This document shows, one piece after another, positions 3,617-44,578 of a stretch of 64,000 nucleotides of DNA. The position numbers and the translations under genes were made by a program. Location of the stretch: positions 29,134 through 93,133 of the IMG/VR virus record IMGVR_UViG_3300014208_001433; one strand, written 5' to 3'. Numbering within the stretch: the stretch's first letter is position 1; each line of letters begins with the position of its first letter. The stretch is from a virus. The notes beneath the pieces were generated by a model. It ran no database searches. It had not been told where the DNA came from and worked only from the letters and a program-made list of their open reading frames with translations.

Positions 3617-3947
3617 CGGCGACATACTGTTTTTGCGGATAAAAAATGTTGCTTTGCAGAATCCGCAACGGGATGAGGAGTTTAAGGATTTGGTTAGAGA
3701 GCAAATACCGGGGAGTGAATTTCATCATGTATTTACAAGTACGGTAGGGATGAAGAGCACGGATTTATTGGGTGTAGCGGTAAGACCGGAAGATCACAAT
3801 GAAAACCAAACGAACCGGGATTGGTTAATTGAGAAGATCCCGGGAGCAATAAGAAATTTAATAATGTATGTAATTAAGCTGAAGAAGGAAATTATTCAAT
3901 TTAAAAAGGAGCTGAGAGATGAGCGAAATAAAAAATCCGTTGGGTGA
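3606..3947 (+). CDS. Hypothetical protein, possibly degenerate HNH-like
   Basis: ORF in a coupled operon; EFHHV...D...H pattern, weak. Confidence 0.45.
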   Translation: MKSDGDILFLRIKNVALQNPQRDEEFKDLVREQIPGSEFHHVFTSTVGMKSTDLLGVAVRPEDHNENQTNRDWLIEKIPGAIRNLIMYVIKLKKEIIQFKKELRDERNKKSVG

Positions 3948-6581: not shown

Positions 6582-6617
6582 TTTCAACCCTTCGGAGAAT
6601 AAATAAATAACTAAATC
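6582..6617 (+). promoter_or_regulatory. Putative phage late promoter, copy 1 (portal)
   Basis: TTTCAACCCTTCGGAGA-N13-TAAATC. Confidence 0.75.
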
Positions 6618-25124: not shown

Positions 25125-25167
25125 GATAAAGTTTACATTATTTTTACAAGATAAAAAGGAGCTTCAA

Positions 25168-25654: not shown

Positions 25655-25690
25655 TTTCAACCCTTCGGAGAAAATCGCATTCCTTAAATA
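25655..25690 (+). promoter_or_regulatory. Putative phage late promoter, copy 2 (protease/capsid)
   Basis: TTTCAACCCTTCGGAGA-N13-TAAATA. Confidence 0.8.
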
Positions 25691-35584: not shown

Positions 35585-36634
35585 ATGAATTACCAAATTG
35601 TTTATGATATTGATTACAGCAAAGTCTATGAGCTGATAAACCACATTGAACAGCAATTAGGCAAAGAAGCTGAGTTACCGCAAGCGATTGAAGCGGCGGG
35701 AGATTTAGCAACACAGACATGGTTAAATGTTGCGGCAAGTAAGTTTAAGCATTCGCAAGGGGGATATGCAAACGGAATTGTATCGGGGGCGAAATATCCT
35801 TATCAGAGCGATAGACTTCATTATAAGATCATTCACACCAGCCCACATGCAAAAGCCCTGGAAGAAGGTTTTGAAAGTTTTGACATGAAGAAGGCGCTTG
35901 ATACTTCGCCAAAAGTAAGGATAGGAAAAGACGGTAAAAAATATTTAGTTATTCCTTTTCAACACGGTACACCGGGAACGACAAGTTTTAGGGCAATGCC
36001 TAAAGAAGTTTATGATAAAGCGCCGGTTTACCAGCGCGAAGTGCTAATGGGGAAAGTGAAATATTCTTTGGATGAAACGAGAACCGGAGCAAAAAACTTG
36101 CGGCATTCCGTTGCTGTAAAAATGTTTAACGAGGGAAGCATAAGGGGAGCGCGAGACCAAGCGGACGCAGAATTAATGAGAAGAAATAATCCTGAGCGTG
36201 TACAGCGAACAATGTATTCGTGGAGCGACAAAATTAAGAACACTGGACAACCGTTGCTTAGAGCGGAGCCAAAGGAATATACGATTAGCGATAAAGCAAC
36301 CGGTGAAAAGTTTAAGGTAACATCTCCTCCGCACAAAACTTCTATCTACGAAAATATGGTGAGATTTCAAACCAATCCCAATGTGAACAGGTTTAATTTC
36401 GGTAAGTTTATTTTTAAACCGCACAACCAGACGGAGAACATGAGGAACTCAAGCGCTTATTTTACTTTTAGAATTATGTCTGAAAATAGTCAAGGTTGGA
36501 TTCACCCGGGATTAAGCGGAATGTTTATTTTAAGGGAAACGAAAGAAAAAATAGAACAGCCGGTTATGATGATGTTGGGGGAAGCGGCGAAAAAAGATTT
36601 GAGTACCACAATTTCGGCATTTAACCAAAGTTAA
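35585..36634 (+). CDS. Neck/tail-completion protein
   Basis: FDMKKAL..SPKVR.GKDGKKYLVIPF and YFTFRIMSENSQGWIHPG motifs of SPO1/Twort-like neck proteins. Confidence 0.65.
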   Translation: MNYQIVYDIDYSKVYELINHIEQQLGKEAELPQAIEAAGDLATQTWLNVAASKFKHSQGGYANGIVSGAKYPYQSDRLHYKIIHTSPHAKALEEGFESFDMKKALDTSPKVRIGKDGKKYLVIPFQHGTPGTTSFRAMPKEVYDKAPVYQREVLMGKVKYSLDETRTGAKNLRHSVAVKMFNEGSIRGARDQADAELMRRNNPERVQRTMYSWSDKIKNTGQPLLRAEPKEYTISDKATGEKFKVTSPPHKTSIYENMVRFQTNPNVNRFNFGKFIFKPHNQTENMRNSSAYFTFRIMSENSQGWIHPGLSGMFILRETKEKIEQPVMMMLGEAAKKDLSTTISAFNQS

Positions 36635-36655
36635 AGAATTAGTAAGTTTGTACTG

Positions 36656-36735
36656 CAATATAAATCATACCCGTGATTTAGAAAGCTCCTTTGAATAGTT
36701 CCTGGAATCCCGCTGCAAAGAGCGGGATTTTTCAT
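36656..36735 (+). ncRNA. Candidate ~80-nt small RNA with an anti-SD seed
   Basis: TAAGTTTG at 36643-36650, 5' hairpin 36661-36680, unpaired gaaagctcctttgaatagtt, terminator 36706-36732. Confidence 0.45.
36706..36732 (+). terminator. Rho-independent terminator
   Basis: aatcccgct-gcaaag-agcgggatt-ttt. Confidence 0.8.
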
Positions 36736-36790
36736 TTTAAACGGTTTGCAAAAAAAAGTGAAAATAATTTAAACTTTTTTTGAAAAAGAC

Positions 36791-36822
36791 TTGACTTTAA
36801 TATACAAACGTTTGTATATTTG
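36791..36822 (+). promoter_or_regulatory. FCB-type promoter (TTG-N21-TAnnTTTG) overlapped by a 22-bp perfect palindrome
   Basis: ttg 36791-36793, tatatttg 36815-36822, aatatacaaac|gtttgtatatt 36799-36820. Confidence 0.75.
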
Positions 36823-36853
36823 TAGTGAAAGAAAAACAAAAAAGGAACCTCAA

Positions 36854-43503: not shown

Positions 43504-43518
43504 AAGTTAATACAAGAC

Positions 43519-43549
43519 TTGTTTTATAAAATAACATTTTATAAGTTTG
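43519..43549 (+). promoter_or_regulatory. FCB-type promoter TTG-N20-TAAGTTTG
   Basis: ttg 43519-43521, taagtttg 43542-43549. Confidence 0.65.
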
Positions 43550-43586
43550 TATTGTCATTTAAAACAATTATTCAAAGGAAAAACAA

Positions 43587-44042
43587 ATGGACAAGGAAAT
43601 TAACCACGAAAGCAAAGATCAAGGACTCGAGGATTTCCTAAAATTCAGAGCAGATCTTTTTAACCAACGATTAAAATCTTTAGGTATAAACGCCAAGATA
43701 AGCGTAAACACCGACGAAGAAAAGATGACATTTCTTAATTGCTTAAGAGAAATTACGGATGAAGATCCTCTCAAAGAACAAAAAACCGATTTAGAAAAAT
43801 TTGTTGAGTTATATTTATCCTTTGGGGTACAGTGCATTGTTAAAGAGGGGATAGACGAGAAATCAAAACAAGAAGTTAAAACAATCCGGTTCCAAAACAC
43901 AAACGGATTGAATGAATATGGACTTGACAATCTACCAGAAGGTTTAACCACCTCAGAAAAGTTTGACGGATACGGTGATTCATTTACGCTGATAACCTTT
44001 TCTAAAGACGGGGAATTTTTATGCCAAGGATTTTGGGGATAA
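43587..44042 (+). CDS. Hypothetical protein (moron cassette)
   Basis: AAGGA SD; own promoter. Confidence 0.65.
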   Translation: MDKEINHESKDQGLEDFLKFRADLFNQRLKSLGINAKISVNTDEEKMTFLNCLREITDEDPLKEQKTDLEKFVELYLSFGVQCIVKEGIDEKSKQEVKTIRFQNTNGLNEYGLDNLPEGLTTSEKFDGYGDSFTLITFSKDGEFLCQGFWG

Positions 44043-44070
44043 ACCATAACAGGCTTAAAGGAGCAGAGAA

Positions 44071-44521: not shown

Positions 44522-44556
44522 AAACCTCCGAAGTTTTTAAAATTTCGGAGGTTTTT
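44522..44556 (+). terminator. Rho-independent terminator
   Basis: aaacctccgaag...tttcggaggttt-tt. Confidence 0.8.
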
Positions 44557-44578
44557 CATTTTAAAACCTTTCCTCAAA

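Follow-up and report, generated by a model that had tools for sequence, protein, structure and literature searches.

The DNA analysed here (the window, 64,000 nucleotides in length) corresponds to G000:C1:29135-93134, part of a 119 kb contig, C1, on which nearly all genes lie on the plus strand. Products encoded on C1 include portal, protease, major head and tail proteins, together with giant polyvalent proteins containing DarB-like, ART and Zeta-kinase domains, and C1 represents a prophage integrated into an uncultured, Ignavibacteria-like bacterium. The left end of the contig, outside the window, carries a lysogeny module (G000:C1:1-4300, locus L388) in which tRNA-Leu and tRNA-Val are followed on the minus strand by genes for a tyrosine integrase (C1 417-1463), a recombinase-like protein (C1 1450-2430), a 451-aa protein and an HTH protein. 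The recombinase-like protein has Pfam Recombinase and Zn ribbon domains with the catalytic N-terminal half absent and corresponds to the DNA-binding half only of a large serine recombinase; the end of its gene and the start of the integrase gene overlap by 14 nt. As a simple rule, each gene was taken to start at its first ATG.

The MAG containing C1 is bacterial, with 14 sigma-70 hits and none to TBP; the best sigma-70 hit, possibly the primary sigma factor, has an open frame of only 292 aa. The sole 16S rRNA gene of the MAG (G000:C203, locus L001), with the 5' end TTCCCGTTGATCCTGCGGGGGA and a score of 1066 bits against the bacterial model, was judged to be a binning contaminant, since the gene is archaeal yet the MAG has these sigma-70 hits and lacks TBP, and it was not used as host 16S. 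One homologue of the gene that adjoins the element described below carries the label Melioribacteraceae, and no SusD was found in the host MAG. The motif TAnnTTTG was 2-3 fold enriched at -50 to -30 of ORF starts in the host MAG, indicating that the host uses Bacteroidota-type promoters and that a TAAGTTTG box is the right kind of signal in this DNA. By a crude count, approximately 25% of starts in the host and 36% in the phage carry an SD-like motif; the ribosomes of Bacteroidia are reported to disregard SD sequences (PMC7797042, PMC13000453).

Layout and predicted fold of the element at 36643-36735

The region 36635-36853 is intergenic and directly follows ORF 35585-36634, hereafter the neighbour gene. 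Nine nucleotides past the stop of this ORF, on the plus strand, lies a Bacteroidota-type -7 promoter box, TAAGTTTG (36643-36650), with a weak -33 element, TTTA, at 36620-36623. The box is followed by a 5' hairpin (36661-36680) consisting of a 7-bp stem, taaatca (36661-36667) with tgattta (36674-36680), and the loop tacccg, then by a single-stranded seed region (36681-36703) with the core AGCUCCUUUGAAUAGUU at 36684-36700, and finally by an intrinsic terminator (36704-36735) whose stem, GGAATCCCGC with GCGGGATTTT, spans 36704-36731 and is followed by a T tail. A first-pass annotation had described a box with a weak -33 element, a 5' hairpin, an unpaired stretch and a terminator, and this description proved exact in both letters and coordinates. 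The 81-nt RNA from 36655 to 36735 had a folding energy of -24.2 kcal/mol (z = -3.64), with none of 200 shuffled sequences folding as well, and its predicted fold consists of the 5' hairpin, approximately 20 unpaired nucleotides and the terminator, the unpaired probability of the seed in the ensemble being approximately 0.7-0.9. An intrinsic terminator and an accessible seed are thus both present, as in generic trans-encoded base-pairing sRNAs, and the element shares the terminator of the upstream coding transcript, a trait of 3'UTR-derived sRNAs. In favour of a promoter is the -7 box, conserved in several lineages at the right distance from the 5' hairpin, and against it the weakness of the -33 element; the window contains 73 copies of TAnnTTTG where 79.7 would be expected, so the motif as such is not enriched.

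No Rfam family was matched anywhere in the window at gathering thresholds, and a search of 36560-36800 with E values up to 10 gave chance-level hits only, of at most 19 bits against thresholds of 41-90, with C4 absent. The locus gave no match to GenBank phages by blastn, and no conserved ORF was found on either strand of the element. A minus-strand gene was considered and rejected, there being an RBS-like motif on that strand but with the nearest ATG 17 nt away, and no ATG in the relatives. A 34-aa minus-strand ORF, which runs through the terminator, was also rejected, as was a plus-strand 30-aa peptide (a TTG ORF, 36691-36783), which in the relative G003 meets a stop after four codons.

Some further repeats were noted around this locus. 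The sequence TAAGTTTGTA is exact in the window at 36643 and 43542 only, and the terminators after the element (36727-36742) and after the cassette containing ORF 43587 (44553-44568) have an identical tail, TTTTTCATTTTAAA. Two accessory cassettes (36787-36822 and 43515-43549) have a common promoter layout, AGACTTG-N20/21-TAnnTTTG, and the -7 box of the 36787-36822 cassette is located inside a perfect 22-bp palindrome (36799-36820).

The late head operon as a possible second source of the seed

The 17-mer TTTCAACCCTTCGGAGA, in the arrangement TTTCAACCCTTCGGAGA-N13-TAAATA, is exact at window positions 6582, 25655, 38392, 44579 and 50563, with TAAATC in place of TAAATA at 6582. Copies stand ahead of the blocks for portal, head, tail and baseplate, and the motif resembles a late promoter specific to the phage. 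The operon starting from the copy at 25655 ends at the terminator of the element (36704-36735), the first strong one after this late head operon, and because the terminator ends the operon as well, the seed is also present at the 3' end of the long late mRNA. Two sources of the seed can therefore be envisaged, one being its own promoter via the host-type box and the other the late head operon mRNA, so that it may be carried by a stand-alone sRNA, by a processed 3'UTR fragment or by both. Given these two possible sources, the RNA could be active towards the end of lytic growth, in the lysogenic state, or in both.

The same arrangement can be read more simply, as nothing more than the late head operon's 3' untranslated end and intrinsic terminator, with the CU-rich stretch and the TAAGTTTG box incidental and with CUCCUUU fitting many SD sites. 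The upstream operon needs a terminator at this position in any case, and the lack of overall enrichment of TAnnTTTG also fits this simpler reading, which is set against the comparative data below.

Conservation in close relatives

In three relatives from IMG/VR (G001, G002 and G003) the neighbour protein is 89-93% identical and the element lies directly after the same gene. The TAAGTTTG box is invariant in all clade-A copies, with flanks that differ, and the 16-nt seed AAAGCTCCTTTGAATA is invariant in G001-G003 between variable flanks. The hairpin stem is kept with changed letters: it reads TAAATCA/TGATTTA here, TAAATA/TATTTA in G001 and G002, where one C-G pair has been lost from both sides, and ATTAC/GTAAT in G003, and the loop ACCCG is kept in the relatives. 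The G003 terminator retains the CCCGC/GCGGG stem with a different loop, and the G003 DNA downstream of the terminator is unrelated, indicating that the element travels with the upstream gene. Exact and gapped scans of IMG/VR and metagenome contigs with the seed, and with box plus seed, recovered the same three relatives only, the other approximately 200 hits being due to chance; a pattern scan with the clade-B seed plus terminator gave chance hits only, and comparison of the neighbour protein with 400 genomes of the host's class yielded no further copy.

Complementarity to RBSs of accessory genes within the window

The element had initially been proposed to encode a trans-acting sRNA that mainly silences the moron gene 43587, together with 25168 and 44071, perhaps as an antitoxin. 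The underlying pairings were verified. UCCUUUGAAUAGUU (36687-36700) pairs with AAUUAUUCAAAGGA in the plus-strand RBS of accessory ORF 43587 (43566-43579) over 14 contiguous nt including one G:U, the longest contiguous match obtained, and AAGCUCCUUU pairs over 10 nt with AAAGGAGCTT in the RBS of accessory ORF 25168 (25155-25164, plus strand). At the plus-strand RBS of ORF 44071 (44055-44064), which encodes a 65-aa hydrophobic protein, the pairing comprises 8 nt of Watson-Crick pairs, or 10 nt when one G:U is included. When 137 start regions were ranked by duplex energy, 25168 was fourth (-18.9 kcal/mol) and 44071 sixth, and 43587 (-16.8 kcal/mol) came only ninth. With the core CTCCTTT held fixed and the flanks randomized, a run of 14 nt or longer to some start region was obtained in 179 of 5000 trials (3.6%). 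Of the 5000 trials, 110 gave matches of 11 nt or more at five start regions, and 38 gave matches of 10 nt or more at ten; by these counts the single match to 43587 is only mildly unusual, and the set of matches more so.

The distribution of these accessory genes was also informative. No homologues of 43587, 25168 or 44071 were found in G002, G003 or the more distant relatives G012 and G014, apart from one piece of 43587 in G003 (52 aa, 50% identical) whose RBS, AAAGAAAAGGTG, is non-complementary; 43587 was likewise not found in G001, which reaches 10 kb past the element. These absences from relatives in which the seed is unchanged speak against silencing of the three genes as the main task of the RNA. 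An antitoxin-like role gained no support either: 44071, alone among small hydrophobic ORFs in matching the seed, is located approximately 7.3 kb from the element, neither adjacent nor overlapping, no toxin family was matched, and relatives that retain the RNA contain no homologue of 44071, such that the element lacks the adjacent or overlapping, co-conserved small toxic peptide gene of a type I toxin-antitoxin system. A silencer directed mainly at 43587 is consequently regarded as highly improbable.

A recurrent RBS motif complementary to the seed

A scan of all C1 start regions revealed that the seed AGCUCCUUUGAAU is complementary to an RBS motif that recurs on the contig, ATTCAAAGGAGTT, whose fuller form is (A)ATTCAAAGGAG(TT). 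The motif is located 7-10 nt before the ATG of six C1 genes and of their G002 and G003 orthologues. Contiguous seed matches on C1 were of 13 nt for the recombinase-like gene, with a second helix of 5-6 bp, 13 nt for a 117-aa gene, 12 nt for an SbcC-like gene, 11 nt for a 160-aa gene directly upstream of the large terminase and 10 nt for a 102-aa gene, in addition to the 14 nt for ORF 43587. By duplex energy the recombinase-like gene ranked first in C1 (-22.0 kcal/mol), in G003 (-23.9 kcal/mol) and in the distant prophage G012 (-21.6 kcal/mol, the next G012 target being at -15.8 kcal/mol). This best target is on the minus strand, opposite to the element and approximately 64 kb from it, and the conserved targets comprise the recombinase-like/integrase operon and several left-arm genes outside the window. 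A conserved secondary candidate target inside the window is the RBS AAAGGAGCT (3905-3913, plus strand) of the 76-aa ORF 3919, which was the best target with a 29-nt seed (-22.5 kcal/mol) and ranked fifth with a 25-nt seed. Its orthologues in G002 and G003 retain AAAGGAGCT. Pfam gave no support for ORF 3919 being Mor-like, and this identity was discarded.

Five copies of TTCAAAGGA are present on the C1 plus strand, four of them at an RBS, and almost all copies in G002 and G003 are followed by an ATG, in most cases that of an orthologous gene. On the plus strand of the part of C1 that is coded on the plus strand, the element is the only copy of the motif complement. The density of the extended motif TTCAAAGGAG in the prophage was approximately 12 times that in the remainder of the MAG; a scan of the whole MAG with the pattern GGAGTTAG was uninformative. 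In the host genus the 16S rRNA ends in CACCUCCUUUCUAAAG, leaving the TTC part of the motif unexplained by rRNA pairing, and the idea of an SD extended to fit the host tail was set aside, as the genus tail reads CCUCCUUUCUAAAG and not CCUCCUUUGAA.

Two further features of the start regions were noted. In the RBSs of two targets, at C1 8307 and C1 2430, both outside the window, GGAG lies within a direct repeat, TTCAAA-GGAG-TTCAAA, and the TTCAAA repeat gives the UUUGAA of the seed a second possible pairing register. Arrays of the heptamers AATTAGG/AATTACG are present at many gene junctions (window positions of approximately 25115, 6030, 9780, 11180, 16900 and 61660, and C1 9760 and 17610), often supplying AGGA just before the ATG.

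Within a single genome the excess of matches over the core-fixed null was moderate (p of approximately 0.008-0.07), and any stretch containing CUCC matches many SDs, both of which fit a mere 3' end of the late head operon. The element could also be a general anti-SD mimic that competes with 16S rRNA at many phage and host SDs and has no specific regulon. Its core CUCCUUU equals part of the 16S tail, and the observed sum of the top five energies was reached by 6, 0 and 3 of 300 dinucleotide shuffles in C1, G002 and G003, respectively. However, the conserved flanks, UUUGAAU in this clade and GAUACUAA in G012, exceed the rRNA tail and fit particular genes, and the enrichment of TTCAAAGGAG in the prophage likewise speaks against such a mimic. 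A general mimic is accordingly given very little credence.

Co-variation of seed and RBS in a distant syntenic prophage

An alignment-based search identified the neighbour gene in two Bacteroidetes MAGs, G012 and G013, at 53-54% identity, and directly after it in both are a box, a hairpin, an unpaired stretch and a terminator. The boxes at the equivalent place are TATGTTTA in G012, which ends in A and not G, and TAAATTTG in G013, with TAATTTTG also found among more distant syntenic loci, and the unpaired stretches of G012 and G013 have ACUAACUCC in common. Comparison of seed and RBSs was carried out on G012, the G013 contig being one that does not include the early region. Like C1, G012 is an integrated prophage, and its left end is arranged in the same way, next to a phosphofructokinase-like gene of the host.

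The exposed seed of G012, GAUACUAACUCCUAG (short form GAUACUAACUCC), differs from that of C1 and pairs with RBSs of the GGAGTTAGTAT type (GGAGUUAGUAU), unlike those of C1, at orthologous genes. Matches were of 12 nt for a 324-aa recombinase-like gene (29% identical to the C1 gene, E = 6e-44), 11 nt for a 401-aa SbcD-like gene whose C1 orthologue is a non-target, 10 nt for a 115-aa gene orthologous to the C1 117-aa gene (38% identical) and 8 nt for the orthologue of the C1 SbcC-like gene. The additional pairing is located 5' of GGAG in C1 and 3' of GGAG in G012, where it extends to the base before the AUG, and the differences between the seeds are matched by differences between the RBSs (CUCC[UUUGAA]UAGUU versus AACUA..[AUUCAAA]GGAG). 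A joint test asked for two orthologous pairs, each with a match of at least 10 nt in both C1 and G012. None of 4000 seed pairs in which the core CTCC was fixed and the flanks were random passed it; among pairs of natural stretches containing CTCC, 10 of 160000 did so. These data indicate that complementarity between seed and targets has been kept by co-variation between C1 and G012, in two independent lineages only, the third lineage, G014, being negative. In G014 and G015, where the neighbour gene is 48-49% identical, a hairpin with a (U)CCUCC loop and a terminator occupy the same place (L270:3416-3540 and L271:3416-3530), and these elements had no extended match to start regions, the recombinase-like gene ranking only 8th-28th. 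Relatives at 34-41% identity have no such element after the neighbour gene.

The comparison bears on two further readings. If the element were only the 3' end of the late head operon, the lack of a seed-RBS relation in G014 and G015 and of any element in the more distant relatives would be readily understood. That reading does not, however, account for a 16-nt invariant seed amid variable flanks, for a -7 box recurring at the same position, for the same gene being the top target in three lineages, or for a different seed in G012 that fits the different RBSs of the same orthologues to an extent seldom or never reached under the two nulls. It is thus considered unlikely, while being the foremost of the alternatives. 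Alternatively, ATTCAAAGGAGTT and its inverted copy might be a DNA-level motif bound by a phage protein, such as the recombinase-like protein or a repressor, and not RNA partners. The best match does lie upstream of a gene for a DNA-binding, recombinase-like protein, and the two sites do form an inverted repeat at the DNA level. Against this, the motif always has GGAG at SD distance from an ATG and is always on the coding strand, the inverted copy falls exactly within the unpaired stretch of a hairpin-terminator fold, and the move of the complementary part from 5' to 3' of GGAG in G012 suits pairing better than a fixed protein site. Protein binding at the DNA level is accordingly judged very unlikely.

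Across these genomes the architecture of the element, its conservation and the co-variation of seed and RBS are direct observations. Of the original reading as a phage sRNA, the part concerning a base-pairing RNA with an anti-RBS seed is strengthened by this conservation and co-variation, and the part concerning its proposed targets and role is not upheld.

Discussion

On the strength of these sequence comparisons we lean towards the view that 36643-36735 specifies an RNA that masks RBSs by base pairing, whether as an independent sRNA or as the 3' end of the late head operon mRNA. Such an RNA would probably restrain the phage recombinase/integrase operon together with a small number of early genes, as opposed to silencing 43587 specifically. 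In the proposed mechanism, a prophage RNA of approximately 80 nt, with a host-type -7 box, a 5' hairpin, the exposed seed and an intrinsic terminator, would pair with, and on either side of, the SD in a limited number of mRNAs of the phage itself. Foremost among its targets would be the recombinase-like gene; others would be the 117-aa gene, the SbcC-like gene, the 160-aa gene upstream of the large terminase and the 102-aa gene, with accessory ORF 43587 as an additional target in this strain. Pairing over the SD would most likely block 30S binding and lower translation, occlusion of the 30S subunit being the textbook mode of RBS-masking sRNAs. We infer that the RNA is made, that the direction of its effect is repression, and the timing of that repression, which would fall late in the lytic cycle or in the lysogen. 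Since the recombinase-like and integrase genes overlap by 14 nt, repression may also spread to Int by translational coupling. A more elaborate proposal is that in a temperate phage of Ignavibacteria-like hosts one RNA, produced from a host-type promoter and present as well at the 3' end of the late head operon mRNA, masks a private RBS tag common to the recombinase-like/integrase operon and the early genes, that seed and tags co-evolve, and that late or lysogenic transcription is coupled in this way to shut-off of these genes; for this we regard the case for and against as evenly balanced.

The element would be a new candidate within the known class of phage RBS-masking RNAs, to judge from its sequence features. 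Functionally, the closest known system appears by analogy to be c4 RNA of phages P1 and P7 (immI), which pairs around the RBS of a phage mRNA and blocks its translation in the control of lysogeny (PMC12197685). In both cases a short, structured, phage-encoded RNA is complementary to the RBS of the phage's own mRNAs. However, c4 and its target share an operon in which c4 is upstream, whereas here the best target is on the other strand at a distance of tens of kilobases, several genes share the site and the RNA lies where a structural operon ends. There are differences in host phylum and in promoter type as well, and the element matches no Rfam model. A second parallel is with the 3'UTR-type sRNAs of enterobacteria (the DapZ, MicL and CpxQ class), which share the terminator of the upstream mRNA and are produced with or without an internal promoter. 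The position directly past a stop codon, the use of the mRNA terminator, the exposed seed upstream of it and the possible own promoter are all alike. RNAs of the DapZ, MicL and CpxQ class are Hfq-dependent and chromosomal, whereas the element is phage-encoded and has no homology to them.

Trans-acting base-pairing RNAs are also described in Bacteroides, GibS being one example (PMC7366714). The element resembles GibS, and RsaE/RoxS of Bacillota, in having a pyrimidine-rich seed directed at the purine-rich initiation regions of several mRNAs, and resembles Bacteroides sRNAs in promoter type and in the use of intrinsic terminators. It differs from RsaE/RoxS and GibS in that its seed is a linear CUCCUUUGAAU and not UCCC loops, in being phage-encoded with phage targets, and in matching no Rfam family. 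A likeness to sib of phage lambda is also apparent. There, int is subject to retroregulation in cis through an RNase III site at the 3' end of the int transcript. Integrase would in both cases be controlled at the RNA level in a manner tied to the state of the phage, but the present RNA would work in trans and target the start of the gene that precedes int.

With seeds and RBS tags defined in two lineages, the prediction can be tested in concrete terms, and a possible use would be as orthogonal riboregulator pairs for Bacteroidota-like hosts. If it is true, phages of this phylum would gain their first described regulatory RNA, and the integrase/recombinase and early genes of these phages would be under post-transcriptional control by a phage RNA. 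A logic like that of c4 in P1 would then have been reached independently in a poorly studied lineage with Bacteroidota-type promoters.
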